Virus record (IMG/VR): IMGVR_UViG_3300045243_000029
Span: 1 to 38,441 of that record
Length of the DNA stretch: 38,441 nt
Strand: one strand, 5' to 3'
Source of the DNA: a virus
In this document: piece by piece, positions 1 to 38,441 of the stretch
Position numbering within the stretch: the stretch's first letter is position 1
How the letters are laid out: each line of letters begins with the position of its first letter
Program-made: the position numbers and the translations under genes
Notes under the pieces: model-generated
Databases searched by the model: none
What the model saw: the letters and a program-made list of their open reading frames with translations, nothing else
What the model was told of the DNA's origin: nothing

Positions 1-127
1 GTCAGGAAATGATGGCGGATATGTGCTATATGGGCACGCGACTGGCCGAACGGGGCTGGAACGTAGTCTATGGCGGGTCGGGCAAGGGCGTAATGGGAGC
101 TGTAGCGGCCGGTGTCGTGGCGGTCGG
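1..127. repeat. Terminal overlap, left copy: bases 1-127 are identical to 38315-38441
   Basis: Read directly: gtcaggaaatgatggcggatatgtgc...gtcgtggcggtcgg occurs at both window ends. It lies inside a coding sequence. Confidence 0.95.
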
Positions 128-497
128 GGGCAAGGCAGTTGGGGTTCTGCCGGCTAAGATTCATGCCCTGGGATATCATCGGGAACAGTTCGATATCGAA
201 GTTGTAGAGGACATGGTCCAGCGCAAGGCTAGATTCTGGTCATGTGATGCATTCCTGTGCCTGCCTGGTGGGGTCGGTACCATGGACGAGCTGTTCGAGA
301 TTTGGACCCTTATCAAGCTCGGGTATGCGCCGCGCCGGCCTATTGTGGTCTTCAACTGGAAGGGCTTTTACAACCCGTTGAAGGAACAGCTCTTTAACAT
401 GAACAGATACGGGACGATGCCGATGGACCGGGTAGACATGGCCCAGTTCACGGACAATCTGGAACTGGCGGTTACGCTCCTGGGAGATGCAGAATGA
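1..497 (+). CDS. LOG-family protein (nucleotide 5'-monophosphate phosphoribohydrolase type), 3' part. The ORF continues from ATG 38275 across the junction, 178 aa in total.
   Basis: Contains VYGGSGKGVMG and the LOG signature PGGVGTMDELFE (PGGxGTxxE). The frame is continuous with 38275-38314. Stop TGA at 495-497. Confidence 0.85.
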   Translation, partial: QEMMADMCYMGTRLAERGWNVVYGGSGKGVMGAVAAGVVAVGGKAVGVLPAKIHALGYHREQFDIEVVEDMVQRKARFWSCDAFLCLPGGVGTMDELFEIWTLIKLGYAPRRPIVVFNWKGFYNPLKEQLFNMNRYGTMPMDRVDMAQFTDNLELAVTLLGDAE

Positions 498-691
498 AAA
501 AGGACGGGTATATATTTTGGTGTTCCAAGTGCAAGGCTGAGCATGCCGGGGAGTGCAACACATTACAAAACGACATTGACAATCTCTGTAAGCAAATAGC
601 AGAGAACATGGAACGCGCTTCCTGGCCAAGAATTTACTATTATGTCCCTGGATACAACGCCATTATTAAGATTGACGACGATGGCAAGTGA
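494..691 (+). CDS. Small Cys-rich hypothetical protein (65 aa)
   Basis: ATGA start/stop overlap with the LOG gene. Cys cluster WCSKCKAEHAGEC suggests a zinc-ribbon-like fold. Confidence 0.6.
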   Translation: MKKDGYIFWCSKCKAEHAGECNTLQNDIDNLCKQIAENMERASWPRIYYYVPGYNAIIKIDDDGK

Positions 692-1163
692 CCTGGCCCG
701 CAAGGCCGCGGAGATTGCCAGCCATGACGTCGGCATCCGGGAACAGGGACAGAATGACGGGCCCCGTATCCGGCAGTACATGTATACGGTAGGTATCCGG
801 CCGCCGCTACCGTACTGCGCGGCTGCTGTCAGTACCTGGATTCACGAGGCTGCTCAGGAACTGGACATGCCAGAAGATCCGCAGTTCATGCCCAGTGCCA
901 GCGCCTTGCGGATGCTGGCCAAGAATACAAAGCTAGCCTTTGAACCGGAGACGCTAACCCCTGATATGATACCGTGCATTTTTATTCTGAACCATGACGG
1001 TATCCATGGGCACGCTGGTCTTATAGTCGGAATGAACGATACTGGTGGGCTGCAAACCATAGAAGCTAATACCAATGCTGACGGAAGTCGCGAAGGTGAC
1101 GGAGTCTATGCTAAGGCGATTAGAAACATTAATCAACTAGCTGGATGCATTAGAATTCAATGA
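642..1163 (+). CDS. CHAP/NlpC-P60-type peptidoglycan hydrolase (endolysin candidate)
   Basis: Catalytic layout: Cys in PLPYCAAAVSTW, His in IHGHAGLIVG, then TIEANTN. An alternative start is ATG 681, which overlaps the upstream stop. Confidence 0.8.
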   Translation: MSLDTTPLLRLTTMASDLARKAAEIASHDVGIREQGQNDGPRIRQYMYTVGIRPPLPYCAAAVSTWIHEAAQELDMPEDPQFMPSASALRMLAKNTKLAFEPETLTPDMIPCIFILNHDGIHGHAGLIVGMNDTGGLQTIEANTNADGSREGDGVYAKAIRNINQLAGCIRIQ

Positions 1164-1729
1164 CGTTTCATGGATGGAAGCCAACCAGAGAGACAGCGCT
1201 GGTCGGAGCCGCTGCGCGTAAGAGAATTTCCAGGGAGCGGGCTGACTCTATAGTTATGTCACAGGAGAAGGCATGCGCCAACTGTCTGCTAACCAAGCCA
1301 TTTGCTGAGTTCCCGGTTAGGTACAGGGCACAATTGACTGGCCGGCACAGTTGGTGCGGTTCTTGCACTGCTAAAAAGGGAAGAACCGCAAAACTAAGGA
1401 ATTTCTATAATCTAACAGATCAAGATTATGAAACAATCCTGTCTTTTCAGGGTGGAGTCTGCGCTATTTGCAGGCGGCCCCCGGTAAGCAAGAGACATGC
1501 CGTTGACCATGACCATAAGACAGGTCTAATTAGGGGACTTTGCTGCGCAAAATGCAATAGAATCATAGGCTCTCTACGCGATAGCCCTGTACTGGCTATG
1601 GCCTGTGCGGAGTTTTTGCGGAACCCCACTGCCACTACCGCACTGGGAGCGCCTAGGTATGGCATTAAAGGCCGAACTAGCAACAAAGCTGCCACCAGAA
1701 AAAGGCTGAATAAAGTAGTTGCACCGTGA
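1160..1729 (+). CDS. Recombination endonuclease VII family protein (free-standing homing-endonuclease-like)
   Basis: Core GGVCAICRRP...AVDHDHKTGLIRGLCCAKCNRIIG is typical of Endo VII. ATGA overlap with the endolysin stop. Visibly AT-richer than its neighbours. Confidence 0.85.
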   Translation: MTFHGWKPTRETALVGAAARKRISRERADSIVMSQEKACANCLLTKPFAEFPVRYRAQLTGRHSWCGSCTAKKGRTAKLRNFYNLTDQDYETILSFQGGVCAICRRPPVSKRHAVDHDHKTGLIRGLCCAKCNRIIGSLRDSPVLAMACAEFLRNPTATTALGAPRYGIKGRTSNKAATRKRLNKVVAP

Positions 1730-1767
1730 TTCAGGACGCGGTCAGATACTTATCGGGAGGCTAGAAC

Positions 1768-2478
1768 ATGACCAGAGACGAAATTCTGACGAAGGTAAAG
1801 AACGGTGAATCACTGCGCGGCGCGGACCTGCGCGGCGCGGACCTGAGCGGCGCGTACCTGCGCGGCGCGTACCTGCGCGGCGCGTACCTGCGCTACGCGT
1901 ACCTGAGCGGCGCGGACCTGAGCTGCGCGGACCTGGGCTACGCGAACCTGGGCGGCGCGAACCTGAGCGGCGCGGACCTGGGCTACGCGAACCTGCGCAG
2001 CGCGAACCTGCGCAGCGCGAACCTGCGCAGCGCGGACCTGGGCGGCGCGAACCTGCGCGGCGCGAACCTGAGCGGCGCGAACCTGAGCGGCGCGAACCTG
2101 AGCGGCGCGAACCTGAGCGGCGCGAACCTGAGTAATCTTAAGCCAGGGTCAGAGCTTGCTCTTATCCGCACATTAATCGTACCTCAGACTGGACCAGTTA
2201 TTGGCTGGAAAAAGTGTAGAAACGGCGTGATTGTAAAGCTTCAAATCGGCGCTGATACGCCCAGACATAACGCGCATGGGCGCAAGTGCCGAGCTAAGTC
2301 GGCTAAGGTTCTTGCCGTGTACGGCGCTAAGGCCGGGGTGTCAACTTGGCGGGAAGATGTATTTTATAGAAAGGGCAAGACCGTAACCTGCCACCTATGG
2401 GACCCGAACCGCTGGAATGAGTGCAGCGGCGGTATCCACTTTTTCATTACCCGAGAAGAAGCCGAAGCGTATGAGTAG
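1768..2478 (+). CDS. Pentapeptide-repeat protein 1 with a conserved C-terminal domain (236 aa)
   Basis: 21 consecutive A(D/N/Y)LxG-type pentapeptides, then [13 protein letters not shown]...[21 protein letters not shown] lies upstream of the ATG. Confidence 0.9.
1813..2127 (+). repeat. 21 tandem 15-bp units (CTG NGC NGC GCG NAC) encoding the pentapeptide repeats
   Basis: Read directly. Every unit uses CTG for Leu and GCG for Ala, and third codon positions are invariant. Confidence 0.95.
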
Positions 2479-2549
2479 CTTCCCGGACCCGGCCGACATA
2501 GAAGCCGATTACATGGACGAATTACAGGAACAGGAAAGGGAACAGGACT

Positions 2550-2837
2550 ATGACGACTTCGGCGACGACCAGGACTGACCTTACCGATAAGCAGCTCAAG
2601 ATGGCCCTTGGCGCGCTTGTCCGGGCCTGTTACTGGGGCAGCACGCCGCTTATCCGCATCTGGTACGCCCTGCAACAGACCGGCCTGACGCTGCTACAGA
2701 CGCAACAGTTCATTGTCCAGTGCCTGGACGCCAAGGTGCTCGAGTCGCACCGGCTCGGCGCGTGGCTGAGCATGACAGGGGCAGGCCGGCAGTTTTACCG
2801 GGACTTCGACAGCATTAGAAGCCTGGCTTCCGCGTAG
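2550..2837 (+). CDS. Hypothetical protein (95 aa), last gene of the plus-strand arm
   Basis: ORF with an ATG start. Its 3' end overlaps the 3' end of the convergent minus-strand gene by 23 nt. Confidence 0.55.
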   Translation: MTTSATTRTDLTDKQLKMALGALVRACYWGSTPLIRIWYALQQTGLTLLQTQQFIVQCLDAKVLESHRLGAWLSMTGAGRQFYRDFDSIRSLASA

Positions 2838-3391: not shown

Positions 3392-3653
3392 TGGGCTTGT
3401 CCTTTTTCTTGAGCATCACAGACGCGATATTAGCCGTGACGGCGTCACCCTTGATTCCGACGGCAGCCGCTAGGGCAAGCCCTGCACGCACGGCGTCCAC
3501 CACCGGAAGCCCGATACCAGGAATCAGTAGCGTGGCAGGAATAAAGGACCCGACGGCAACGGTCCCGACAGAAACAGCGACGGTCAAAGCAGTATGCAAC
3601 CAGTTTGGCACGGGATTACCTCTTGAATATAATGTGTAGGACAATGGCGGCAA
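3384..3653 (-). CDS. Holin candidate (89 aa, two predicted TM segments, charged C-terminus)
   Basis: Hydrophobic stretches WLHTALTVAVSVGTVAVGSFI and LLIPGIGLPVVDAVRAGLALAAAV, with C-terminal KKKDKPNA. Confidence 0.6.
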   Translation of the reverse strand: MPPLSYTLYSRGNPVPNWLHTALTVAVSVGTVAVGSFIPATLLIPGIGLPVVDAVRAGLALAAAVGIKGDAVTANIASVMLKKKDKPNA

Positions 3654-3798
3654 TAACAGACGCCAGAACAGTACCCGTCAAGCCCTGTAGCGAGCGGATA
3701 CCGGACTTAACGGCCTTGAATTCGGTTTCAATCACGAGAACACGGTCCCCGAGCTTTTTCAGCTCTTCGGCTAGTTTGTTCGGCGCCGTTCCTGCCAT
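3616..3798 (-). CDS. Small membrane-anchored protein (60 aa, C-terminal TM)
   Basis: Charged helix NKLAEELKKLGDRV, then LTGTVLASVIAAIVLHIIF-KR. Sits in the lysis-type cluster. Confidence 0.6.
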   Translation of the reverse strand: MAGTAPNKLAEELKKLGDRVLVIETEFKAVKSGIRSLQGLTGTVLASVIAAIVLHIIFKR

Positions 3799-3800
3799 GA

Positions 3801-3983
3801 CTAGCTACCGTCACAGTGAACGCCCGCGCGCAGTTCCAGAATCTTTAGGTTATACGCAGCTTGGGTCTTCATGGCGTCTAACTCTCTGTCGCTGTCCCGG
3901 TGCTGTGACAGCCTGTGACCTGCGTAGGTACCGACACAGATAAGATACAGGACGACGCAGTAGCGAACAACGGTTCTAATCAT
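3801..3983 (-). CDS. Small membrane protein (60 aa, N-terminal TM); i-spanin-like or antiholin candidate
   Basis: N-terminal VVRYCVVLYLICVGTYAG followed by a charged helical tail. Confidence 0.6.
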   Translation of the reverse strand: MIRTVVRYCVVLYLICVGTYAGHRLSQHRDSDRELDAMKTQAAYNLKILELRAGVHCDGS

Positions 3984-4131
3984 TGCCTAGTTCCTCCAAT
4001 AGCCGTGACATCCACGGACGGTTACGAGGGTCTAGTATATCATGCCCAGGCTGTGTATCAGGGCCGTTGTGGTAGCTGCCCCGGAATTGTCCTAGGTAAC
4101 TGGACTGGACGGAACTGCAAAAGCCAGCCAT
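3976..4131 (-). CDS. Unlisted small ORF (51 aa, MAGFCSSVQSSYLGQFRG...)
   Basis: Hand-translated. Its ATG shares the TAATG junction with the stop of 4131-4331, and its TAG overlaps the ATG of 3801-3983 by 8 nt. It fills an otherwise empty 147-nt gap in the operon. Confidence 0.4.
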   Translation of the reverse strand: MAGFCSSVQSSYLGQFRGSYHNGPDTQPGHDILDPRNRPWMSRLLEELGND

Positions 4132-4331
4132 TACGCAGTCCTTTGCCACATACGTACTACGATGTACGGGGGCAGGTTGTTATGGGCCAGTCCGCCGCCA
4201 GTGCTGGCCGGCTGAATTGCCGCCGCTCGAGCTGACCCGCCCGTAGCAGTGCTGGCCATTACGTTAGTGCCGGTCGTGGCTGCGGTAGTACCTCCCTGGA
4301 TATTGAGCGCGTGCGTGTGACCAGGAATCAT
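4131..4331 (-). CDS. Short tail-fibre-related protein (66 aa) resembling the segment C-terminal to phage tail-collar domains
   Basis: GHTH...GGGLAHNNLPPYIVV pattern. ATGA overlap with the upstream gene. Confidence 0.6.
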   Translation of the reverse strand: MIPGHTHALNIQGGTTAATTGTNVMASTATGGSARAAAIQPASTGGGLAHNNLPPYIVVRMWQRTA

Positions 4332-4702
4332 AGGTAGTAGCCCCAGGTAATGAACTGTACGACAGCCGTACCGGACGCCAGGGCCGTCCCTACCGTCAAG
4401 GATAGGGCCCCGGTCAGTGGGGTTTGTGGAAGGGTCGGCACTCCCACGGCAATAATATTGCCTGGAGTGACCAGAACGGCAGCCGCGAGGGACGCGGACG
4501 CCGCGACGGCAGTAGCTAGCGAGCCGGTAAGAATTGCAGTCCCGACCGGAGACGATGCTGAGATGAGCTTACAGGTGATTTGCTGGACGACGAATCCGCG
4601 ACCGTTCGAGTCCGGTACAAGTTGAGCAACGGCGCTAACCGTTTGCAGCGCAAGCGTGTCACTGAGAAAGTATTGGGTCCTATTTGCTCTAGTGCTGGCC
4701 AT
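4328..4702 (-). CDS. Hypothetical virion/tail-associated protein (124 aa)
   Basis: ORF coupled by TAATG to the tailspike stop. Ala/Thr/Ser-rich. Confidence 0.65.
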   Translation of the reverse strand: MASTRANRTQYFLSDTLALQTVSAVAQLVPDSNGRGFVVQQITCKLISASSPVGTAILTGSLATAVAASASLAAAVLVTPGNIIAVGVPTLPQTPLTGALSLTVGTALASGTAVVQFITWGYYL

Positions 4703-7155
4703 TACTCGTCCACGTAGGCGCCACCGTTAATACTGACCTGAAAGGTGCCTGTCAGGTTGTTATAGATCCTGGTAGCCTTATTAGCGGCTGATAGCACGGC
4801 AGATTGCCCGTCGGCAAAGTCAACGGCGCCGATCTTAGTGTCGCCGGTAAAGCCAACACCTACCCCGCCATGACCGTAGAACTTTTGTGCTTCCATAGTT
4901 CCGGACGTTCCGGCGGGAAGGTACAGCGCCTGGTGACGGACAGTCCCGACAAGTTCTGCGAAGTCATTGGCATTAACCGTGGAAGGAACGTAAAAGGCCG
5001 TCATCCCCCACATATAGACCGTGGCGTTAGTCGGGACGCCTACGTCAATGATATAGCTTGGGGTAGTGCTGCCAGTGGCAGAAACAGTGCGGTAAGCTGA
5101 CACGAACTGCCACCCGGCAGCGTTGTACGGCACCGGGATAGAATCGCCCTCAGAGAAGGTCAGGCCGTTAGAGGGAATGAGCCGGAAAAGCTCAGTCGAG
5201 ATCATGCCCGCCGGGGCGTCAAAATTCATCCAGCCGCAAATTACTAGACGGCCACCGACAGTCCAGGTATTGCCATCGGCGCCGTTAGGCTTGATCTGGG
5301 TATACTCGTAAAGAGTAGTCGTACTCTTGGCGGCCGTAGTAGTGCCGTCCGGCGCTGTCTCGCCAGTGGTCGTAATGGTAGTGTGAGCGCCGCCAATCCA
5401 GCTACCAGGAGCTGACATGACGTTCTGAAACCGCGCCGCAACTGGGCCGAAAGCACGGGGGCTACCCGGATGCTTTCCGGTGATGCGCCCGTCAGCCCAT
5501 TGCGTAATTTGGCCGTACTGCCAAGGACTGGGGTTGACGGCGCCGCCACTGGCCCACAAAGAAGGGGTATCCCAACGGTCGCCAGCTAGACCCGGAGCAG
5601 TTACCTTGCCGCACCGTAGAATCTCAATCCCGCTAGGTAGCAGACCGGTTACGGTTACGCTGTCGGTGGCAGTAGAAGCGTCGGCATTGTTTACGTTCTC
5701 GCAGTAGATGCTGCAAGAGCTGTTCCCGAGCATGGCTACTGCCGGTAGGTTCAGGGCGATGAAGTTAGATTCGATTACAGCGTACTTGACAGACGTCTGG
5801 CCGTTCCCGCTAGACGGTACGCGGGTACGGATAGAGCCGTTAGTGCCGTATACGTTTGTAGCCCGCACTGAACCGTTACCGGTCTGACCAGGGAAGCAAA
5901 AGACGGCCGCCATACGGTCCTCATCGCGCGGACCGGTACCGTCGCCTACGTAGCCCTCGAACCAGCAGCCGTCTAGCCAGGTCGGATTAGCGTTGTTATG
6001 GCCAATCCAGTAGCTAGGGCCGGAGAATGAATTAGTCTGGTTATTGATAGCGTCGGCGCAGTTGTGAAACTCGATCTGGTTAGACCCGGCCCCTCGAGCC
6101 TCGATATGCGCCAGCGTGCCAGGGTTATTGACGTTCTGGTTACCGTCACCAAACACATCCAGAACCGTAATGGTGTCGACCGTGAAGGCCGTAACCTTGT
6201 ACTGCGTAGATACAAAGTGGGAACTAGAAGACGTTAGAACCAGATATTCGCCGTCATTACCGTCTGCCAGGGTGCCGCCACAGGAGTGTGACTGTACGGT
6301 GCCGATGTTAGCGGTAGGGGCCTGGTCGGCTGCCGTCTCAGCATACTTGATCGTATACGTAGCCTGAGCACCAGGATTACCGTCCACGTCAGTTAGGGTA
6401 TAGTTACCGCTAGCGAAGTTAACGTTAGTGCTAGTGACCTTTACAATCTGGTTCACGCGCCAGGGCGGCCACTTCACTCCCGGGTTAGTAACGGTTAGGG
6501 TGGTGACGTTCGAGGTACGGCTAGCGCTGGCAATACCAAGCCCGGTAGGAAGCGTGACGGTATAGACAGTGCTGGTTCCGGTCCTGGTAGCATTGGTGAC
6601 GGTCAGGTTCAGTACGGTACCGTCCGTCTTGCGGTCGAAGTCAGCGCCGACCATGGCAAAGACCTGCTGCGACCCGCCGAGTTGCATCGACTCAAACCGC
6701 ATTGGGTTATTGCTGCCAACCACCCAAATGCCAGGATTGGTCCTGCCGCCGCCGCCGGTGAACGTCGCCGGCACTGGCCGTTCAAAGGCACGGAATGTGG
6801 ACTTACCGTATCCTTGAATCAGCAGCGGCACGGACGCTAGAAATCCTGGCCGGGCCAGCCCGTCACCTTGAAACCATAGTCCTTGTCCTGACACGGGACC
6901 GCTGACGGAACAGCCCTCGACATAGTTAAGCGTACCGCCGCCGGCAGTAATCAGGACATTGGCAGCAGCGTAAAGGGTCTGCTTAGCCGTAAGCCAGCCT
7001 AGTCCGTCGTGGGAGTCGTTACCGTCTGGGCTAACAAACTGAATAGCATTGTTAACCAGCGATGTGCCGAGGCTAAGCGTGCCAGCAGTATTGATCAGCG
7101 GATAGTCAGCGATGATGCTGGATCCGCCTCCGCCAGGTGATGGAAAGACAGGCAT
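4702..7155 (-). CDS. Tailspike / right-handed beta-helix protein (817 aa); depolymerase candidate
   Basis: N-terminal FVSPDGNDSHDGLGWLTAKQTLYAAA is typical of parallel beta-helix (DUF1565/pectate-lyase-like) proteins. Long Gly/Thr/Asn-rich beta-type sequence. Confidence 0.8.
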   Translation of the reverse strand: MPVFPSPGGGGSSIIADYPLINTAGTLSLGTSLVNNAIQFVSPDGNDSHDGLGWLTAKQTLYAAANVLITAGGGTLNYVEGCSVSGPVSGQGLWFQGDGLARPGFLASVPLLIQGYGKSTFRAFERPVPATFTGGGGRTNPGIWVVGSNNPMRFESMQLGGSQQVFAMVGADFDRKTDGTVLNLTVTNATRTGTSTVYTVTLPTGLGIASASRTSNVTTLTVTNPGVKWPPWRVNQIVKVTSTNVNFASGNYTLTDVDGNPGAQATYTIKYAETAADQAPTANIGTVQSHSCGGTLADGNDGEYLVLTSSSSHFVSTQYKVTAFTVDTITVLDVFGDGNQNVNNPGTLAHIEARGAGSNQIEFHNCADAINNQTNSFSGPSYWIGHNNANPTWLDGCWFEGYVGDGTGPRDEDRMAAVFCFPGQTGNGSVRATNVYGTNGSIRTRVPSSGNGQTSVKYAVIESNFIALNLPAVAMLGNSSCSIYCENVNNADASTATDSVTVTGLLPSGIEILRCGKVTAPGLAGDRWDTPSLWASGGAVNPSPWQYGQITQWADGRITGKHPGSPRAFGPVAARFQNVMSAPGSWIGGAHTTITTTGETAPDGTTTAAKSTTTLYEYTQIKPNGADGNTWTVGGRLVICGWMNFDAPAGMISTELFRLIPSNGLTFSEGDSIPVPYNAAGWQFVSAYRTVSATGSTTPSYIIDVGVPTNATVYMWGMTAFYVPSTVNANDFAELVGTVRHQALYLPAGTSGTMEAQKFYGHGGVGVGFTGDTKIGAVDFADGQSAVLSAANKATRIYNNLTGTFQVSINGGAYVDE

Positions 7156-7158
7156 GGG

Positions 7159-8235: not shown

Positions 8236-8236
8236 G

Positions 8237-8920
8237 TTAAGCCCAGTTCTGGTTCTTCCCGATAGCTAGCGGGTAGCCGCGACCGGAAGTAGAGGTAAAG
8301 GAAACGCGCAGAGCCCTGACAGTCAACTGTCCCTGGGCAAACTGTGATCGAGTAGCGCTAGGCGCGGCGATGACAGCAGCGATAGCGGGAGACGCATACA
8401 GGGCGGTAATGTCAGTCCAGTGACCAGCCGTAGGAGTCTGGCCGAAATTGCCGCCGCCACTGGCCAGGCTGACATCGTTGCTAATCTCGATTTTCCAAGA
8501 GCCGGCCAAGGTATCGTCAGACAGGGATACGGCCACGCCAGGGCCGAACGTCTCATTAACCAGGCCGGTCGTAGCCGTAGTCACATTCGTAGCGCTGACA
8601 CGGGTCAGGATAACAAAGGTCCCGTTATTCCCTGAGTTAGATGCGCCAGTAACCGTAAAGGACCCGCCGACGTCATCGGCGGTAAAGTTTCCGTTAACGA
8701 AATGCCACGTACCGGAGCTGGCCACGACCGAGTCAGCGGCGTTATGGACAATGGTCCTAACGTAAGGGTCCACGACAAGCTGCAATCCCGAGCTGGACAT
8801 CATCTTCATCGGGATAGCGCCGCCCGCCAAGGTGGCAGCGCCGGACAGCAAGTTAGCCGCGATAGGCTCTTGACCTCCTAGAAAGTAACAGTCTTTGCCT
8901 TCGCCGAAAATAAGGGACAT
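8237..8920 (-). CDS. Hypothetical virion protein (227 aa)
   Basis: Long ORF in the operon. AAGGA lies upstream of the ATG, and the 17-nt late motif sits immediately upstream. Confidence 0.7.
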   Translation of the reverse strand: MSLIFGEGKDCYFLGGQEPIAANLLSGAATLAGGAIPMKMMSSSGLQLVVDPYVRTIVHNAADSVVASSGTWHFVNGNFTADDVGGSFTVTGASNSGNNGTFVILTRVSATNVTTATTGLVNETFGPGVAVSLSDDTLAGSWKIEISNDVSLASGGGNFGQTPTAGHWTDITALYASPAIAAVIAAPSATRSQFAQGQLTVRALRVSFTSTSGRGYPLAIGKNQNWA

Positions 8921-24574: not shown

Positions 24575-24582
24575 TATCCTTG

Positions 24583-26424: not shown

Positions 26425-26426
26425 AG

Positions 26427-26702: not shown

Positions 26703-26705
26703 ATA

Positions 26706-26722: not shown

Positions 26723-26726
26723 GGAC

Positions 26727-30699: not shown

Positions 30700-30849
30700 A
30701 TGCGCACCGAAAAGAAGACCGTACCGGTTCGGCCCCTGTCCATGCGAGAAACGCAGGAACAGTTCTTGCCTGACGGGACGCCGCGACCGACATTAGCAGA
30801 CCTAGAACAGTCACAGGAGGAAGATGAAGAGCATGGACATACCAATTGA
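30700..30849 (+). CDS. Possible unlisted 49-aa acidic ORF
   Basis: Hand-translated (MRTEKKTVPVRPLSMRETQEQF...EEDEEHGHTN). It fills the gap between two genes. No clear SD. Confidence 0.3.
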   Translation: MRTEKKTVPVRPLSMRETQEQFLPDGTPRPTLADLEQSQEEDEEHGHTN

Positions 30850-31609
30850 GCCACGAGAAGTCCCGCGCCTTAGCCCCAGCATCGCCAAGATCTTACTCGA
30901 TAAGTCGCCGAAGCATGCCCATGCAGCTCATAGACTGCTCGGTAACGCACCTAAGCCGGAGCCGTCCCCGTCAACGCTACTGGGCAAGGCCGTTGACGCC
31001 CTGGTATTCGGGACCGTCTCTGTCAAGGTCAAGAACAAGGGCGAGACCTATGACGATACCGATATTGTCCTGACGCCAGCGCCGTATATGACAGCGCTGG
31101 GAGTGGCTGGTTCGGTCCGGGCGGCTATTGATAGCAAGTGGGGTCGCAGTTTAGGCGGAAAGCCACAGCACAGGGTAGAATGGAACAGTATGGGTGTCCA
31201 GTGCAGCGGCGTGATTGATCTGTACTGGGTTAATGGCATTGTGGTTGAGCTTAAGACGGCACACGATCTGTCCGACGCTGGCATCGTCAAAGCGATTGAA
31301 CTATACCGGTACGACCTGCAACTGTGCGGGGCCTATAATGAATCCGTTACGGAGCTTTATGGCGTCAGTAAGCCGGAATTACTGTTCCTGTTCGCCGAGA
31401 CGGCCGCTCCGTACGATACGCGCTGGATTACCCCGGACAGCCGCATGATCGGCAACGGTACCGCCGATTGGCTTCGCGCTGTTACGCTTTGGAAGCAATG
31501 CCTAGACAGCGGGGTCTGGCCGGGAAGGGGGAACGCCACGCTTGGTCCGTCCCGCTGGAAAGAGGACAAGCAACGTGCCGAAGCTTGGCTAAACTCTTCT
31601 CAGCAGTAA
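30824..31609 (+). CDS. PD-(D/E)XK family nuclease (261 aa)
   Basis: GVIDLYWVNGIVVELKTAHD gives the D...E-x-K motif. AGGAGG lies upstream; the alternative ATG is 30833. Confidence 0.75.
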   Translation: MKSMDIPIEPREVPRLSPSIAKILLDKSPKHAHAAHRLLGNAPKPEPSPSTLLGKAVDALVFGTVSVKVKNKGETYDDTDIVLTPAPYMTALGVAGSVRAAIDSKWGRSLGGKPQHRVEWNSMGVQCSGVIDLYWVNGIVVELKTAHDLSDAGIVKAIELYRYDLQLCGAYNESVTELYGVSKPELLFLFAETAAPYDTRWITPDSRMIGNGTADWLRAVTLWKQCLDSGVWPGRGNATLGPSRWKEDKQRAEAWLNSSQQ

Positions 31610-31611
31610 CT

Positions 31612-32037
31612 ATGCCGGACGTTAGCAATAGATTTCTGTCCAAGGTATTTCAGGCTGATTCTGGCTGTCTGGAATGGACCGGTGCCGTAACCAGTGCTGG
31701 CTACGGAAACTTCTGGGACGGGAACAGATACCGGTCGGCGCACCTCTATTCATATGAGATTAATCGCGGAGAGGTTCCCACCGGTCAGGTTCTTGACCAT
31801 CTTTGCAGAAACAGACTGTGTATCAATTCTGACCATCTAGACGTGGTATCTTGCAGGGAGAACACGCTTCGAGGAAAATCCTTTTCGGCAAAGCACAGCA
31901 AACAAGCTAAATGCCTTAACGGTCACTTGTTTGACGAGGAGAATACAAGAACTTATAGGAATAGACGTTATTGTAATCAGTGCGCTAGAGACAGATACCG
32001 AAACAGAATCCGAACCGAACCCAAACAAGGAGAATGA
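31612..32037 (+). CDS. HNH homing endonuclease (141 aa)
   Basis: CLEWTG...GYG...DHLCRNRLCINSDHLDVVS is the classic phage HNH_3-type core. AT-richer than the flanks. Confidence 0.85.
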   Translation: MPDVSNRFLSKVFQADSGCLEWTGAVTSAGYGNFWDGNRYRSAHLYSYEINRGEVPTGQVLDHLCRNRLCINSDHLDVVSCRENTLRGKSFSAKHSKQAKCLNGHLFDEENTRTYRNRRYCNQCARDRYRNRIRTEPKQGE

Positions 32038-32381
32038 AATTGTCAGACACTTGGGCAGATCTGAAACCGTCCCGATTCCTTAAGCAGGAGGATGTTGCTA
32101 CTCCGGTCACGTACACTATCAAATCCCTCACGCGCGAATCCGTCACGTTCCAGGACAAGGCCGATATCGGGACGATCGTGCGTTTCGAGGAAACCGAACG
32201 GGAAGTGTTTGCCAAGACGGCATTGGTCAGTCAGCTTGCCGAACTGTTCCCGGCCGGTCCTGGTACCGCCGTCGGACAGAAGGTGGAGCTGTTCCAGGAC
32301 AAGTCTGTCATGATGGGAGCAAAGAAGGTCGGCGGGTTGCGGTTCCGGACCCCGAGCCAGGGAAGTGCCGCGCCGTTCTAA
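32034..32381 (+). CDS. Hypothetical protein (115 aa)
   Basis: ATGA overlap with the HNH stop. Confidence 0.65.
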   Translation: MKLSDTWADLKPSRFLKQEDVATPVTYTIKSLTRESVTFQDKADIGTIVRFEETEREVFAKTALVSQLAELFPAGPGTAVGQKVELFQDKSVMMGAKKVGGLRFRTPSQGSAAPF

Positions 32382-32457
32382 GGCGAGTACCGGTGACGGG
32401 TCAAGACACGTTGCCGTTCTGTCCAGTCAGGATGACAGCCGGGAAAGACCGGCCCTT

Positions 32458-32530
32458 ACCCGAATAGCCCAAAAGGAGAGGCACAGGACTTAGAATCCTG
32501 CAAGTGCTGGTGCAAGTCCAGCTTCGGGTA
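32458..32530 (+). tRNA. tRNA-like gene, anticodon UAG (Leu by the code), class-I architecture
   Basis: Hand-folded. 7-bp acceptor ACCCGAA/TTCGGGT, U8, D-loop with GG, anticodon stem CAGGA/TCCTG with loop CTTAGAA, T stem GCTGG/CCAGC, discriminator A. The T-loop TGCAAGT has G where U55 is expected. Confidence 0.55.
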
Positions 32531-32532
32531 CT

Positions 32533-32608
32533 TCCCGGTAACGCAAACGTGAATAGCGGCTGCCTGTTAGAGGCAGTGATCTAATCGGTTCGACTCCGAT
32601 ACCGGGGA
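32533..32608 (+). tRNA. tRNA-like gene with a non-canonical anticodon loop; the nominal anticodon is UUA
   Basis: Hand-folded. Acceptor TCCCGGT/ACCGGGG (U1-G72), anticodon stem CTGCC/GGCAG with loop TGTTAGA (G at position 33), canonical T arm ATCGG-TTCGACT-CCGAT, 7-nt variable region, D-loop lacks GG. Confidence 0.4.
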
Positions 32609-32673
32609 CGGATAGCACAGGTACCAGCGCTTGATAAACAACGGCTAAGTATGGGCCATTAGTACCCTAGCCT

Positions 32674-34362
32674 GTGCGTTCCACCAATTTGAATCAATTA
32701 AGCCTCATACAGGATACGGAGCCAACGGTATCTGAGCAGCATTCGCCCCACGTGGGTCAAAACGCACTCAGACCCTATCAGTCACGGATCTTGGATGAGG
32801 CCCTTTCCTTAATCGGCCTGGGGAAGTCGCCGCTAATCGAAATGGCAACCGGAACGGGCAAGACCCGTCTAGCTGCTGAACTGGTGCGGCGGCTTCCCCA
32901 GGCACGGACGTTATGGTTAGCTGAGCGGCGCGAATGGCTCGAACAAGCGCGCGGTTCTTTGCTGTATCTGGACGAGCCGATAGGGTGGGAAGCACCAGGC
33001 AGATACAGCTCCAACGAACGGATTGTGCTGGCAAGCAAGGATACAATCCGGCAACCAGACAGGTTAGAACGGCTCAGGGACTTTCGGCCGTTCGACCTGA
33101 TCGTAACAGATGAGGCGCATCACAGTGCAGCGCGAACCTATACGGTGGTACGACAGACTTACCCTGGCGCTGTGTTGGTTGGGCTTAGCGCTACTCCTGA
33201 CCGCTTTGATAAGCGCGGTCTGGATATGTTTTCTGCTCGCACGACACCATACGGAATTGTTCAAGCTGTTGGCGATGCCTGGCTAGTCCGGCCCATGGCC
33301 AAGCGCTGTAAGGTCAAGTCAGTAGACCTGAGCGGTATCGGTTACCGGGCTGGTGACTTTGCTGTCAACGAACTGGACAACCTATTTGCAGGGGAGGAAA
33401 CGATACATGGATGCGTCCGAGGCATTTTGGAGAACGTACAGAGCCGCCCTACAATCGTCTTCTGTCCAGGAATTAGCAGCGCGCACAGAACGGCTGAAGT
33501 CCTTGACCGTTACAGTGGCAGACTGGTTTCCCGGGTTGTCACTGGTCGAAGCAGTCCAGACTTTAGAACTGACGCGTTTAAACATTTTGGCAAAAGCTAT
33601 CAGTTTCTCGTCAACGTTGCAGTAGCTACAGAAGGGACGGACCTGCCCGATGCCGCGTGTATCTCATTCCTCCGACCGACGCACAGTCCGGCGCTGTTCC
33701 GGCAAATGTTGGGGCGAGGTCTCAGGCCAGCCCTGTCTATGCATGTGGACTCCACAAGAGAAGAAAGGGAGGCCATTCTTCGGGACGGACCGAAGCCTAA
33801 CTGTCTTGTTCTTGACTTCGTGGGAGTCACGGGACGGCACTCAGTGGTCACTGTTGCGGACGTCTTTAGCACCGGGCCGGCCGCTAAACTGGTTGGAAAT
33901 CGTATCGATACTGAAGCGGATACCGGAACTGCAATCGACGTATTCGAAGCGATCCGGACCGAAGAAGAAAAGGAACAAGCCGCCAAGGAAGCGAAAGAAC
34001 GGCGCCGACAGCGCGAAAAAGACAAGCGCCAAGCCATTACAGGGAAAGTCACTGTCGAAGTCACAGAAGCGGCGCTTATTGGCCTCGGTAGCCTGTCCGT
34101 ACGGGATGATCAATTGTCGATGCGGCCGGTCAGCCCAGGTCAAGCGCAAGAGCTAACGCGGTTAGGCATTAGTATAGGCGACGGCCCCAGGACGGCCGCG
34201 TACGCACGAAAACTAATCCTTGACCGCAGAGAACAGCTCGGGTTAATGTCAGAGAAACAGGCGGCGTTCCTGCTGAGGCATGGACAGGGCGGGCCTGAAA
34301 CTACAAAAGCACAAGCAAGGGGGCTGACATGGAAATTGCTAAAGCGATGGAAGAGATTGTAA
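32674..34362 (+). CDS. Superfamily-2 DEAD/DEAH (ResIII-type) helicase (562 aa)
   Basis: Walker [13 protein letters not shown] box IVTDEAHH, motif III LSATP, and a later QMLGRGLR motif. GTG start. Confidence 0.85.
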
Positions 34363-35159
34363 GTGCGAATAAAGAGAAGCGCTGCGCGGACCTGAGCTGC
34401 GCGGACCTGAGCTGCGCGTACCTGCGCGGCGCGGACCTGAGCTGCGCGGACCTGAGCTGCGCGGACCTGCGCTGCGCGAACCTGAGCGGCGCGAACCTGA
34501 GCGGCGCGAACCTGAGCGGCGCGAACCTGAGCGGCGCGAACCTGCGCGGCGCGGACCTGAGCTGCGCGGACCTGAGCTGCGCGAACCTGCGCGGCGCGAA
34601 CCTGAGCGGCGCGAACCTGAGCGGCGCGAACCTGAGCGGCGCGTACCTGAGCGGCGCGAACCTGAGCGGCGCGAACCTGAGCGGCGCGAACCTGAGCTGC
34701 GCGGACCTGATCTGCGCGGACCTGAGCTGCGCGGACCTGCGCTGCGCGAACCTGAGCGGCGCGAACCTGAGCGGCGCGTACCTGAGCGGCGCGGACCTGA
34801 GCGGCGCGTACCTGAGCGGCGCGGAAAACTTACCGGATATGTCATGGACTTTGATTGTGCCAGAAACAGGTACAGTAACGGGCTGGAAAAAGTGTCGCCA
34901 CGGAGTGATCGTAAAGTTGCTGATTCCAGCGTCGGCCAAGAGACATAACGCCACTGGACGTAAATGCAGGGCAGAGCGGGCTAAGGTTCTTGAGGTAATC
35001 GGCGCTGACGAGGGAATTTCTTTTCAGGACGGTTCTGTTAGGTACGTAAAGGGTAAGACCGTGAAGGCTGTCGATTACGAGCCTGACAGGTGGCAGGAAT
35101 GCGCTGGGGGTATCCATTTCTTTATCACCCGCAAGGAAGCAGAAGACTATGTTATGTAA
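34329..35159 (+). CDS. Pentapeptide-repeat protein 2 with the same C-terminal domain as protein 1 (276 aa)
   Basis: 29 consecutive pentapeptides, then [13 protein letters not shown]...[15 protein letters not shown]. Overlaps the helicase 3' end by 34 nt. Confidence 0.9.
34386..34820 (+). repeat. 29 tandem 15-bp units (GCG NAC CTG NGC NGC)
   Basis: Read directly. Same unit and same codons as the array at 1813-2127. Confidence 0.95.
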
Positions 35160-35559
35160 TACCGTGCCCGACCTGTCCAAGTTAACCGACCTGCAATGTT
35201 CGGTTTGGCTTAAGGACCAGGACGGGCTAAGGCCGATTGAGATAGGGGAACAGCTTGGGCTTACGCCGCGCCGGGTCTGTAATATTAAGGCCAGACTCCG
35301 GGTCCTGGGCTTTCCGGTAAACGACCTGTGGAGCGCTAAGCGGCTACAGGCTGAGATGTACGGTCCTAGCCAGTTTGAGCCGGAAGACGATGAAGAGCCG
35401 GACCGGGACGAACCGGTGCAGATGGGGCCGGTCCAGCGCTGTGCCTGTGGATTGGTGATGCCCTGCAATGACCATGATAGTATTAATCCTTACCTAGTAG
35501 GAGTTAAGAACAGAAATAACACGACCTATCCGGACGGGGACGAGGACGATTCTTGGTAA
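35149..35559 (+). CDS. HTH protein resembling sigma-70 region 4 / LuxR-type DNA-binding domains (136 aa)
   Basis: [39 protein letters not shown], followed by an acidic tail and a Cys cluster. Confidence 0.6.
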
Positions 35560-36386
35560 GCCCTGAACAGGTAGAGCAGGCCCGGTGCTACTCCATTCTG
35601 AGGCTTATCCCGGGAAGCGCTAAGCTGAAACGGCACGGACGCGGTTACATGACAAACTGTACCTTCCATGACGACACAACCCCGTCTATGTCGCTTATCA
35701 AGTTTGACGATGGCCACTGGCGGTATAAGTGCTTTGGGTGCGGTGCCAGCGGAGACCCGGTTACGTACCTGGCCAAGACAAGGGGAGTCGACTTCATGAA
35801 AGCAGTCAAGCAACTGTCCGATGCGGCTCGAGCGGCGCCGGTCAAGCCTCAGCCTGTGGCCTATTACGACTACTTCGACGAGCACGGCGTGTTACTGTAC
35901 CAGTCGATCCGGTACGAGCCGAAAAGCTTCCGACTGCGCAGGCCTAACCCGGAGAACACCGGGGACGGGCCTAAACTGGCTTGGATCTGGGACCTGTGCG
36001 GCGTCAGGCGGGTCCTGTATCGGCTGCCTAAGCTGATTTGGGACGGCGGCGTAAAGGACATCACCGGAGAAGAAAAGGCTACGATCTATTACGTCGAAGG
36101 GGAAAAGGATGTTGAGACACTGGAAAAGTACGGCCTACTGGCCACTACGCACGCTGGCGGCGCTGGCGCGTTCCGTGAGGAACTGCTACAGCCGCTTAAG
36201 GGCCGCCGTATCGTTGTGGTACCGGACAGGGATGACCCAGGCATGCAGCTCGGCCGACGGGTCTTTGCTGCCGCTAGATCGCAGGGCAGCCAGATCGGTT
36301 TTATCCTACTGCCGCGCGGGAAGGACGTTACGGATTTCTTCGGAGAAAATGGAACAGTTAAGGAACTCTTGTCGCTGGTCAAATAA
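35553..36386 (+). CDS. DNA primase (CHC2 zinc finger plus TOPRIM), 277 aa, TTG start
   Basis: CTFHDDTTPSMSL...CFGCGASGD zinc finger; YYVEGEKDVETL and VVVPDRDDPG TOPRIM acidic motifs. Confidence 0.85.
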   Translation: MVSPEQVEQARCYSILRLIPGSAKLKRHGRGYMTNCTFHDDTTPSMSLIKFDDGHWRYKCFGCGASGDPVTYLAKTRGVDFMKAVKQLSDAARAAPVKPQPVAYYDYFDEHGVLLYQSIRYEPKSFRLRRPNPENTGDGPKLAWIWDLCGVRRVLYRLPKLIWDGGVKDITGEEKATIYYVEGEKDVETLEKYGLLATTHAGGAGAFREELLQPLKGRRIVVVPDRDDPGMQLGRRVFAAARSQGSQIGFILLPRGKDVTDFFGENGTVKELLSLVK

Positions 36387-36422
36387 TGGAATGCATCCAA
36401 AGGAAAGGCGGAAGGGAACATA

Positions 36423-36530
36423 ATGCACAGTCTAACGTTCGTTGACGGCCTGGTATTCGGTCTTGGCATGCAAGTTGCTGGCCTTATCGTAGGCATTGTA
36501 AGTGCCTGGACGGGACAGGTGACGAAATGA
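36423..36530 (+). CDS. Unlisted 35-aa single-TM peptide
   Basis: Hand-translated MHSLTFVDGLVFGLGMQVAGLIVGIVSAWTGQVTK. ATGA junction to the next ORF. Confidence 0.4.
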   Translation: MHSLTFVDGLVFGLGMQVAGLIVGIVSAWTGQVTK

Positions 36531-36631
36531 TTCGGCGGTACCTAATCGGATTCGGTCTGGACCTGTTAGCCGGGCTGTGTATGACCTTTGCGGCCCTGTG
36601 CGTGGTATATTGGGTAGTGAACAGATGGTAA
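36527..36631 (+). CDS. Unlisted 34-aa single-TM peptide
   Basis: Hand-translated MIRRYLIGFGLDLLAGLCMTFAALCVVYWVVNRW. Its stop lies within the duplicated junction sequence. Confidence 0.4.
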   Translation: MIRRYLIGFGLDLLAGLCMTFAALCVVYWVVNRW

Positions 36632-36909
36632 CCGTACTGGATAGCATCCACGATCTGGCCATGGCAGTTGCAGACTCAGGTGGCGTGCTAACTTCGGTTA
36701 CACTAAGCGAACGTGGATATTCCGCGCTGTCAAAGTACCTGAACAGCAGGATGCCTGTTGATATACATGAGGCATGCGGCGACTATGACCGGCCCAGTTC
36801 GCCATGGTACGGTAGCCGGCCGAGTGAAACCGAGTTCCGTTCTATCATGATTAATACCAATGCCGGAGCCGTCAGGGTAATGCAGGAAAGGGTAGTGAAC
36901 AGATGGTAG
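36625..36909 (+). CDS. Hypothetical protein (94 aa)
   Basis: ATG 36625 lies inside the AGATGGTAA junction. Sequence MVTVLDSIHDLAMAV..., ending in VVNRW like the preceding peptide. Confidence 0.6.
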   Translation: MVTVLDSIHDLAMAVADSGGVLTSVTLSERGYSALSKYLNSRMPVDIHEACGDYDRPSSPWYGSRPSETEFRSIMINTNAGAVRVMQERVVNRW

Positions 36910-36998
36910 ACGGACCGTTAGTTACCGTTCTGTCACTGTCCCTGTGCTTTATCGTGGTGTGCCTGCTAGGTCGAAAGGATGACGATGGCAACGGTTAA
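36903..36998 (+). CDS. Unlisted 31-aa single-TM peptide
   Basis: Hand-translated MVDGPLVTVLSLSLCFIVVCLLGRKDDDGNG. It starts in the second copy of the junction sequence. Confidence 0.35.
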   Translation: MVDGPLVTVLSLSLCFIVVCLLGRKDDDGNG

Positions 36999-37743
36999 GT
37001 TCAGGCTAGATATGGTAAAGTCGCGTACCCACCTTGTAATCCCTGACTGCCAGGTCCGGCCTGGTGTCGATATCAGTCACATGGGCTGGATCGGCAATTA
37101 CATCGCCGAAAAGCGACCGAACGTTATCGTCTGTCTCGGGGACTTCGCGGACATGGCCAGCCTTAACGGGTACGGCGTAGGCAAGGCTAGCGCCGAGGGA
37201 AAGCGGTACGTAGACGACCTAGCCAGCGTCAGGACGGCCATGGATAAGCTGACGAAGCCGTGGCGGAAACGGTATAGCCCTAAACAGGTCATGACCCTGG
37301 GCAATCATGAGGACAGGATTACCCGTGAAGCCGAAGCGAATCCTAAGTTTGTCGGAGCACTCTCAGTTTCTGATCTCGACTATGAAAGCTTCGGTTGGGA
37401 CCAGTACCAATTCCTTAGAGTCGTCGAGATTGACCGGGTATCCTACTCGCATTACTTCACGTCAGGGGTTATGGGCAGACCGGTTTCAAGTGCCGCTGCT
37501 TTGCTCCGAACCAGGCACGCATCTAGCGTTATGGGCCATGTACAGATGCTAGACTTAGCTATTCATCCCAAGACACAACATATCGGGCTGTTTGCTGGTC
37601 TGTGTACGCTCCATAATGAGAACTATCTAGGACCGCAAGGTAACGACACTAAGCGCGGTATTTGGATGCTACATGAAGTGCACGACGGTACATTTGACCC
37701 TATGTTTGTCAGTCTTGGATTCCTCAAACGCCGGTACAGCTAG
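36979..37743 (+). CDS. Calcineurin-like metallophosphoesterase (254 aa)
   Basis: Motifs VCLGDFAD and LGNHEDRI (GD...GNHE). Confidence 0.75.
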   Translation: MTMATVKFRLDMVKSRTHLVIPDCQVRPGVDISHMGWIGNYIAEKRPNVIVCLGDFADMASLNGYGVGKASAEGKRYVDDLASVRTAMDKLTKPWRKRYSPKQVMTLGNHEDRITREAEANPKFVGALSVSDLDYESFGWDQYQFLRVVEIDRVSYSHYFTSGVMGRPVSSAAALLRTRHASSVMGHVQMLDLAIHPKTQHIGLFAGLCTLHNENYLGPQGNDTKRGIWMLHEVHDGTFDPMFVSLGFLKRRYS

Positions 37744-37751
37744 GAGCTAAT

Positions 37752-38066
37752 GTGGCCAAGAAAATCTACAAGTGGTTTGTCTCCGCATACGACCAGAACG
37801 ACCGCTGTATCAGCCCCAAGGACTTGAACGTCGGGCAACAGCACTTTGCCAGCCTGGACGACGCGCAGACGGAATGTCACAGGCTGTTACAGCGCTTTAA
37901 CGACCCTGACGGGCCGGAGCCGTCTATCTCTTACTGTAACATCCTGGTAGCCGTGGGCAAGGCTGAGCGGCAAGTGGTTGAGACGGTTGCTACCAGGATT
38001 ACGCCGCTCGATGACGGGGCAGAGATTGACGATAACGATTCGGGTACTAACAAGAACTGGAACTGA
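37752..38066 (+). CDS. Hypothetical protein (104 aa), GTG start
   Basis: AGGAG lies 5 nt upstream of GTG 37752. Confidence 0.6.
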   Translation: MAKKIYKWFVSAYDQNDRCISPKDLNVGQQHFASLDDAQTECHRLLQRFNDPDGPEPSISYCNILVAVGKAERQVVETVATRITPLDDGAEIDDNDSGTNKNWN

Positions 38067-38068
38067 CC

Positions 38069-38275
38069 GTGAAGTATTGTAAGGGAAGCCGGGTAATGAT
38101 TCGTGACGGCAAACGGAACCTGTACCGGATGCATGCCGGCCCGGAGTCGCTGCTGCCTAGGACCATTATCCACGCGGACCAGGTACAGAAACGGGTACGG
38201 TACTGGCTGGACGGGCCGCCGGTGATGGCCTGGGCGGGAGATGTTAAATTGGCAACCGATAAGAAGGGGCTCTAA
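38069..38275 (+). CDS. Hypothetical protein (68 aa, or 59 aa from ATG 38096)
   Basis: ORF with a TAATG junction to the LOG start. Confidence 0.55.
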   Translation: MKYCKGSRVMIRDGKRNLYRMHAGPESLLPRTIIHADQVQKRVRYWLDGPPVMAWAGDVKLATDKKGL

Positions 38276-38441
38276 TGAGTAAGTCGGTCTGTGTCTTTGC
38301 CGGGGCCCGTGGCGGTCAGGAAATGATGGCGGATATGTGCTATATGGGCACGCGACTGGCCGAACGGGGCTGGAACGTAGTCTATGGCGGGTCGGGCAAG
38401 GGCGTAATGGGAGCTGTAGCGGCCGGTGTCGTGGCGGTCGG
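38275..38441 (+). CDS. LOG-family protein, 5' part, truncated by the window end. Same gene as 1-497.
   Basis: ATG 38275 (MSKSVCVFAGARGGQEMMADM...). From 38315 the sequence repeats bases 1-127. Confidence 0.85.
   Translation, partial: MSKSVCVFAGARGGQEMMADMCYMGTRLAERGWNVVYGGSGKGVMGAVAAGVVAV
38315..38441. repeat. Terminal overlap, right copy; unit genome length is 38314 bp
   Basis: Same 127-nt string as 1-127. Confidence 0.95.

Follow-up and report, generated by a model that had tools for sequence, protein, structure and literature searches.

Pentapeptide-repeat proteins (PRPs) such as Qnr, MfpA, AlbG and McbG are built on a right-handed quadrilateral beta-helix. In Qnr, loops A and B are well established to interrupt this helix (PMC10886550), and a C-terminal dimerisation helix has been described for MfpA, Qnr and AlbG (PMC10886550). 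In another architecture, which is already catalogued but uncharacterised, a pentapeptide array (Pfam family PF00805) is followed by the domain of unknown function DUF5758 (PF19062). It is found in gp59 of phage Cjw1 and in the cluster-E relatives of this phage, where it usually carries the annotation 'pentapeptide repeat protein'. Here, we analysed a viral DNA of 38,441 nucleotides (IMG/VR record IMGVR_UViG_3300045243_000029, positions 1 to 38,441; hereafter the window) from a phage whose lineage looks new and which carries this architecture twice, in two proteins that we label PRP1 (open reading frame (ORF) 1768-2478) and PRP2 (ORF 34329-35159). Both are non-structural, cytoplasmic, Cjw1 gp59-like members of the PRP-DUF5758 family and are encoded in the DNA-metabolism arm of the genome. 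We propose, with somewhat less than even confidence, that each joins a DUF5758 core to a variable rod, that the two rods serve different targets, and that neither protein is a gyrase-binding mimic.

PRP1 (236 amino acids (aa); 1768..2478, + strand) consists of a capping helix, 21 pentapeptide repeats and DUF5758, as seen from the ORF, Pfam matches and an AlphaFold2 model. PRP2 (276 aa; 34329..35159, + strand) has an N-terminal segment that is helix-like by analogy with PRP1, followed by 29 repeats and DUF5758. Shine-Dalgarno-like motifs are located 6-8 nt 5' of both ATG codons (GGGAGG in PRP1, AGGGGG in PRP2). The PRP1 array (1822..2136, + strand) spans aa 19-123 and its DUF5758 domain (2176..2463, + strand; PF19062 and phrog_9562) aa 137-232, while the PRP2 array (34386..34820, + strand) spans aa 20-164 and its DUF5758 domain (34851..35141, + strand) aa 175-271. 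A regular-expression parse reads A(D/N/Y)Lxx units without interruption through both arrays, and Tandem Repeats Finder (TRF) places the 15-bp tandem arrays at 1813-2130 (318 bp, 21.2 copies, 90% match) and at 34384-34823 (440 bp, 29.3 copies, 92% match). Against PF00805 (cut-off 20.2 bits) PRP1 scores 191.3 bits (E = 1.2e-57) and PRP2 158.3 bits (E = 2.8e-47); against PF19062 (cut-off 26.9 bits) the scores are 91.7 bits (E = 3.4e-26) and 101.9 bits (E = 2.3e-29), with both C-terminal domains covering model positions 3/4-105 of this domain of ~105 aa. BLASTP aligns PRP1 and PRP2 across 230 aa at 61% identity (E = 3e-81), and their C-terminal domains of ~100 aa, compared alone, are 62-65% identical. 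A preliminary description of this DNA had recognised the common architecture and the repeat counts of both ORFs, had judged the C-terminal domains 60-65% identical by eye, and had assigned about 4% of the genome to the two genes; BLASTP, the parse and Pfam bear this out, and the genome share computes to (711+831)/38,314 = 4.0%. It also pointed to a domain of unknown function that recurs after such repeats, which our profile search of the C-terminal domains identifies as DUF5758. No additional diverged DUF5758 copy was found elsewhere in the window, and antisense ORFs spanning both arrays merely result from the repetitive sequence.

The 3' end of PRP1 is overlapped in another frame by ORF 2417-2578 (+ strand), which encodes a very acidic protein of 53 aa (net charge about -11) with a C-terminus ending in EQEREQDYDDFGDDQD and matches no family. 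An internal Met codon of this ORF at ~2471, a position calculated from the translation, would overlap the PRP1 stop codon. Judged by charge, its product is a better DNA-mimic candidate than PRP1. Because ORF 35149-35559 has an acidic tail as well, we considered a conserved small acidic partner encoded downstream of the family genes. This idea was dropped, since, in 148 loci, the ORF that follows the family gene carries a charge of +1 at the median and acidic proteins are not enriched there.

The full-length AlphaFold2 model of PRP1 (predicted local distance difference test (pLDDT) 96.9, predicted template modelling score (pTM) 0.85) contains a helix at aa 3-11, a beta bridge at each fifth residue over aa 20-120 and a short helix at aa 129-133, after which the C-terminal domain begins. 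The PRP1 array is thus modelled as a right-handed quadrilateral beta-helix of ~5 coils, in line with the fold anticipated in the preliminary description. Its best Foldseek neighbours in the Protein Data Bank (PDB) are cyanobacterial and synthetic consensus pentapeptide-repeat proteins (E = 4e-10), followed by NleL and SopA (E about 1e-5) and then by Qnr, MfpA and AlbG (5e-5 to 1e-3). NleL and SopA combine such a helix with a C-terminal catalytic domain and therefore provide an architectural precedent for the union of a pentapeptide rod with DUF5758. Calculated from composition, PRP1 has an isoelectric point (pI) of 9.65 and a net charge of +12 (array +2, C-terminal region +9), and PRP2 a pI of 5.7 and a net charge of -3 (array -6, C-terminal region +3). 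Among 268 family members, the N-terminal region has a mean net charge of -1.2 (median -1, interquartile range -3 to +1).

The arrays are homogenised within each gene: they are 90-92% homogeneous at the DNA level, whereas the C-terminal domains of the two copies are ~62% identical in DNA, and the consensus unit is ANLRG in PRP1 and ANLSG in PRP2. The PRP2 array alternates blocks of ANLSG with blocks of ADLSC and holds 12 cysteines at position five of the unit. Rod length varies within the family as well. Fifty gene pairs with C-terminal domains at least 90% identical differ in the length of the N-terminal region, and in 37 of these 50 the difference is a multiple of 5 aa; pairs with identical C-terminal domains are among them. 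A length difference of one 15-bp unit has been published for a different pentapeptide-repeat gene, in a P22-like case. Of the 80 IMG/VR loci, 22 have a contig end 40-450 bp before the C-terminal domain, which falls inside the array. These ends indicate that 15-bp arrays break short-read assemblies, so that repeat counts in databases are unreliable and many members are truncated.

DUF5758 of PRP2 modelled alone (pLDDT 87.8, pTM 0.80) comprises nine short strands and a C-terminal helix. The fold is shared with many viral proteins: a search of predicted viral structures (BFVD) returned 30 matches at E < 1e-3; the query-normalised TM-scores of the top 30 lie at 0.60-0.80. Giant viruses contribute proteins with MORN-repeat, pentapeptide-repeat and RING-finger annotations to these matches, and the phage proteins among them are one with a HEAT-repeat annotation and four of Acidovorax phage ACP17 (KY979132). 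In ACP17, at least nine DUF5758-like paralogs of 177-204 aa, annotated hypothetical, are encoded at 3591-8609 and 23906-27853, mostly in tandem and in an early-type region; they have no pentapeptide repeats and score 21-51 bits. In the reciprocal direction, a hidden Markov model built from the ACP17 paralogs matched both window proteins at 36 bits.

We assessed conservation in 402 unique DUF5758 domains, with residues numbered from window positions 34836-35156. Arg-45, Tyr-70 and Gly-92 are conserved in 99.8% of the domains, Glu-101 in 99%, His-94 in 98.8%, Arg-36 in 98.5%, Cys-44 in 97.5%, Cys-89 and Lys-18 in 97%, and Arg-42 and Lys-43 in 95-96%. Cys-20 is present in 84% and otherwise replaced by Leu, Ala or Val. 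The near-invariant motifs of this basic, all-beta domain of ~100 aa are RK(C)R, the Tyr, CxxGIHFF and (D/E)A..Y. The distant ACP17 paralogs have RKMRA in place of RKCRA but keep CxxGIHFF, RKxR and the Tyr, so that one Cys and one His only, those of CxxGIHFF, are conserved out to distant members. A strict Cys3His zinc site is weakened by the substitutions at Cys-20 and Cys-44, and a universal site of this kind is unlikely. The truly conserved part appears from the alignment to be a pocket centred on Cys and His, with invariant basic residues and the Tyr on its flanks. The suggestion in the preliminary description that the Cys/His-containing C-terminal domain is an effector or docking module stays plausible, but the conserved Cys/His set is narrower than envisaged there. 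Readings of the conserved residues as R-S-ExE (ADP-ribosyltransferase-like), SET-like or sortase-like centres were dropped because no fold match was found. DUF5758 domains are ~50-68% identical across phages of Actinobacteria, of Alpha-, Beta- and Gammaproteobacteria and of other phyla. This level of identity across unrelated phyla, together with the presence of the fold in giant viruses, suggests that the partner of DUF5758 is a universal ligand or reaction rather than a lineage-specific host protein.

The family is large but rarely multicopy in phages. Searches with the C-terminal domain by itself yield 909 clusters at the 90% identity level and 3,430 representatives at the 50% level (E ≤ 1e-3); nearly all of these combine pentapeptide repeats with DUF5758, and some are stand-alone domains of 100-120 aa. 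DUF5758 always forms the very end of the protein: in 268 proteins, a median of 1 aa follows the domain. It is found in 158 of 50,697 phage records, in one copy each, namely in 152 cluster-E mycobacteriophages, two Synechococcus phages and one phage each of Rhizobium, Ralstonia (BOESR1), Thiohalocapsa and faecal origin. A motif-anchored scan of 185,579 species genomes gave 68 loci from many phyla, many of them on phage-size contigs. More than one copy is present in only 3-4 of ~150 metagenomic or genomic loci, and adjacent tandem pairs, the cases with two copies inside 10 kb, were seen at L063 8395-10303, L124 7488-9060 and L130 7287-9058. The L063 pair, with C-terminal domains 93% identical and N-terminal regions that differ by 40 aa, or eight five-residue units, appears to have arisen by recent duplication, after which the repeat number changed. 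A recent in-genome duplication of PRP1 and PRP2 was rejected, since dozens of other members are as close to their C-terminal domains as these are to each other (65%): the PRP2 domain has an 82% relative elsewhere, and PRP1 ranks only 51st among its matches. The split is therefore old, or the copies were acquired independently.

The genomic context of the relatives places the gene among early and replication genes. The BOESR1 gene belongs to the early region, where it precedes the RNA polymerase gene and is surrounded by small genes with hypothetical annotations. The Thiohalocapsa phage carries the gene just ahead of its DNA polymerase/primase gene, and the Rhizobium phage carries it on the downstream side of the repressor region. 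The Cjw1 gene comes third in a set that runs divergently from the annotated repressor, which is on the opposite strand. When 150 neighbouring genes from 50 loci were compared to PHROGs, the commonest families were DnaB-like and other helicases, primase, HNH endonuclease, endonuclease VII, RecT/Erf and methyltransferase. The most frequent family reached 4 of 150 genes, and no virion structural family was among the 25 commonest, save small terminase twice. The scan thus reveals no conserved partner gene and lends no support to a structural role.

In our preferred reading, DUF5758 would be a constant functional core. Its partner is probably either a universal ligand that carries phosphate (nucleic acid or nucleotide), which the domain would bind or modify, or a highly conserved machine as a docking site. 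That the domain is autonomous follows from its stand-alone forms, from the repeat-free ACP17 paralogs and from the same fold ending MORN, HEAT, RING and pentapeptide proteins. Its near-invariant residues across phyla argue for a universal ligand or catalysis and not for a fast-evolving host protein partner. The pentapeptide beta-helix would act as a rigid rod of variable length and surface, encoded by a slippage-prone 15-bp array, and would serve target recognition or spacing as in NleL and SopA. The two copies would share their core and differ in the length (about 5 versus 7 coils) and charge (+2 versus -6) of their rods, and PRP1 and PRP2 may each have a target of its own in early infection or DNA metabolism; neither would be a gyrase-binding DNA mimic of the Qnr/MfpA type.

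Several points weigh against this reading. DUF5758 could not be linked by structure or profile to any characterised domain: the best Foldseek match of the C-terminal domain in the PDB has E = 0.42 with a TM-score below 0.25, the scattered OB-fold proteins found there are at chance level, and the best match of a C-domain-only profile to PDB sequences has E = 2.3. The description as an enzyme or ligand binder draws on conservation pattern and charge only, and high conservation could also stem from a structural or oligomerisation role. Two of the cysteines vary, with Leu, Ala or Val for Cys-20 in ~15% of members and Met for Cys-44 in ACP17. Some differences in repeat number, including the 21 and 29 of the window, may be assembly artefacts. 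Finally, we found no paper on 'DUF5758' and no functional study of phage PRP-DUF5758 proteins in the literature.

A more specific version, which we regard as possible but rather doubtful, is that DUF5758 is an unrecognised effector fold with a catalytic or ligand centre formed by Cys-x-x-Gly-Ile-His, RKxR and the Tyr. The fold would be mounted on interchangeable scaffolds (pentapeptide, MORN, HEAT) and expanded into paralog sets, and would let phages and giant viruses of eukaryotes manipulate a universal process of the host that involves nucleic acids or nucleotides. The window copies would then represent a natural minimal pair, with a common core and rods of opposite charge, for separating the targeting from the effector module. 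More generally, DUF5758 is a widespread and strongly conserved viral domain, common to bacteriophages and giant viruses, and a structural orphan. Should the domain turn out to catalyse a reaction or to bind nucleic acids or nucleotides, it would represent a new class of module for host manipulation by viruses and would explain why the gene is conserved in about 150 sequenced cluster-E mycobacteriophages.

Among the alternatives, an anti-defence role is unlikely but fares best. Here, the rod or the whole protein would act as a decoy or inhibitor in the manner of Ocr and ArdA and block DNA-targeting host immunity (restriction-modification, BREX, Gabija or similar). The BOESR1 gene occupies an early position, ahead of the RNA polymerase gene, where ocr is found in T7-like phages; paralog expansion and fast rod variation are typical of arms-race genes. 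However, the C-terminal domain is far too conserved across phyla for a protein that binds fast-evolving defence proteins, PRP1 is basic, and the fold is present in giant viruses of eukaryotes too. The anti-defence papers and catalogues that we found do not mention pentapeptide-repeat proteins, and no anti-defence protein library was scanned.

We give a similarly low probability to a role as B-form DNA mimics, in which the beta-helices would bind the gyrase or topoisomerase IV of the host like Qnr, MfpA and AlbG, with DUF5758 as an accessory. The fold is common to these proteins, the PRP2 array is mildly acidic, the genes are located in the replication arm, and small phage gyrase inhibitors, Igy and Gip, do exist (PMC10886550). 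Yet PRP1 and PRP2 score 32.7 and 46.1 bits against the Qnr model (NCBIfam NF033086, cut-off 240 bits) and 45.3 and 53.0 bits against the MfpA model (NF000349, cut-off 360 bits), 5-8 times below the cut-offs. By sequence and fold, the arrays are closest to the consensus-type cyanobacterial and synthetic proteins. Qnr-type loops are absent from both arrays in the parse, the TRF output and the PRP1 model, and the all-beta DUF5758 takes the place of the C-terminal dimerisation helix. PRP1 is strongly basic, with an array that is itself positive, the N-terminal regions of the family are near neutral, and the same C-terminal domain is fused to repeats that are not DNA mimics. On these scores, missing elements and charges together, we reject membership in the Qnr/MfpA group, and with it the view of the preliminary description that these are gyrase-directed DNA mimics of that type. 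The acidic, DNA-like surface it had looked for is contradicted by the composition of PRP1 and weakly compatible with that of PRP2, and functional DNA mimicry is weakly possible for PRP2 only. Fold alone is thus insufficient to annotate phage pentapeptide-repeat proteins as Qnr-like quinolone-resistance or gyrase factors.

No more probable is an arrangement in which the beta-helix is the functional part and DUF5758 only a C-terminal cap or an oligomerisation domain that replaces the dimerisation helix. DUF5758 always follows the C-terminal end of the helix, which is the dimerisation site in known pentapeptide-repeat proteins, and the pTM of the full-length PRP1 model suggests a fixed two-domain arrangement. 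A mere cap is difficult to reconcile with stand-alone DUF5758 domains, with fusions to unrelated scaffolds and with the nine ACP17 paralogs that lack repeats, and its near-invariant polar and charged residues (Arg, Lys, Tyr, Cys, His and Glu) exceed what a cap would need.

A phage-borne defence or superinfection-exclusion gene directed against competing phages appears quite improbable. In the temperate relatives Cjw1 and the Rhizobium phage the gene is found beside the repressor/integrase region, and the Hailong defence system includes a pentapeptide-repeat protein (PMC13586616). The Hailong protein, however, differs in architecture and has an ion-channel domain; in Cjw1 the repressor is encoded on the other strand, and two small genes of the divergent set precede the family gene; and no integrase or repressor family was matched among the window ORFs scanned. 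PADLOC, whose models cover defence systems and not anti-defence, gave no match for either protein or for either C-terminal domain. A virion or injected structural protein, for which one weak PHROG tail-fibre match through the repeats only could be cited (E = 1.4e-3), is very improbable, as the gene is outside the annotated virion clusters in the window, BOESR1, the Thiohalocapsa phage, Cjw1 and the Rhizobium phage, structural families are missing from the commonest metagenomic neighbours apart from the two small terminases, and no signal peptide or transmembrane segment is evident on reading either sequence.

An exact direct terminal repeat of 127 bp (1..127, identical to 38315-38441) marks the window as a complete genome that either has terminal redundancy or comes from a circular assembly. 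The genome unit is consequently 38,314 bp, and 30824..38314/1..2837 forms one continuous + strand arm. This arm encodes, in order, an exonuclease VIII-like protein, an HNH endonuclease, tRNA-Leu, a superfamily 2 (SF2) helicase, PRP2, a weak helix-turn-helix ORF, a primase, a metallophosphoesterase, a LOG/SLOG protein, an endolysin, endonuclease VII, PRP1 and small ORFs. The SF2 DNA helicase gene (32674..34362, + strand; phrog_16, E = 5e-56) is directly upstream of PRP2, which overlaps its 3' end by 34 nt, and the endonuclease VII gene (1160..1729, + strand; phrog_307, phrog_2633 and phrog_2914, E = 1e-29 to 5e-31) is directly upstream of PRP1. The preliminary description had noted both of these neighbours and had assigned the two genes to a replication module and a separate accessory arm. 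The helicase overlap and the endonuclease VII adjacency hold, but the terminal repeat joins both genes into one arm, on which they are ~4.9 kb apart.

The LOG/SLOG gene ('possible lysine decarboxylase'; 9-497, + strand; PF03641, E = 1.6e-28; SLOG cluster 4) starts inside the terminal repeat and belongs to a nucleotide-processing family that is uncommon in small phages. The tRNA-Leu gene (anticodon TAG; 32458-32531, + strand) is located between the HNH-endonuclease region and the helicase gene. Between the - strand gene block and the start of the + arm, two clusters of 10-bp tandem repeats (30235-30264, ATATGGTCAC x3; 30308-30343, TGACAATTGG x3.7) may be origin or regulatory iterons. The virion module on the - strand (2815-30541) is very divergent, and PHROGs match only the portal (24583-26424) and the large terminase (26727-28211); a 1483-aa ORF (15335-19786) and ORFs of 817, 576, 419 and 414 aa have no PHROGs match at E ≤ 1e-5. 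Just downstream of the 1483-aa ORF, a 9-bp repeat (CCGCCTACG x9.2) that can also be read with a 6-bp period is present at 15110-15193. No DNA polymerase family was matched among the + strand ORFs scanned. As the search for integrases and repressors covered part of the ORFs, a lytic lifestyle is plausible rather than proven. Megablast against phage records found no relative of the phage, a helicase-based IMG/VR scan returned a 41-aa fragment only, an exact-protein look-up gave no record for the window proteins, and tblastn of 39 window proteins against 156 loci found at most two genes in common with any locus. The carrier phage is thus without a close relative in the collections searched.

We compared PRP1 and PRP2 to the systems they resemble. 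With Ocr and ArdA the likeness is confined to a proposed early phage role: no relation in sequence or fold was found, and Ocr and ArdA are strongly acidic, whereas PRP1 is basic and PRP2 near neutral overall. Qnr, MfpA, AlbG and McbG have the right-handed quadrilateral beta-helix in common with the PRP1 model, from which the window proteins depart by their low family scores, the lack of loops and of a dimerisation helix, the added DUF5758 and the basic nature of PRP1. NleL and SopA follow the same design logic, with an N-terminal pentapeptide beta-helix as a recognition scaffold and a C-terminal effector domain. Their effector domain is a HECT-like E3 ligase unrelated to the ~100-aa DUF5758, and they are secreted type III effectors rather than cytoplasmic phage proteins. 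The proteins of giant viruses (Klosneuvirinae, Mimivirus, Pithovirus) and the ACP17 paralogs have the same C-terminal fold, share the RKxR...Y...CxxGIHFF...(D/E)A..Y residues and likewise form multi-copy families, but their N-terminal partners are others (MORN, HEAT, RING or none), identity is 14-30%, and Cys-44 is not conserved. Closest are the PF00805 plus PF19062 proteins, that is, Cjw1 gp59 and other cluster-E proteins, BOESR1 gp9 and EVB67_031 of Rhizobium phage RHph_TM3_3_14B. They have the same domain order, C-terminal domains 43-55% identical to ours and, in the case of BOESR1 gp9, 58% identity over 90% of PRP2, and they occupy early or non-structural positions as in the window. What sets the window apart from the 158 phage records with DUF5758 is that it holds two diverged copies of a gene present once in each of them.

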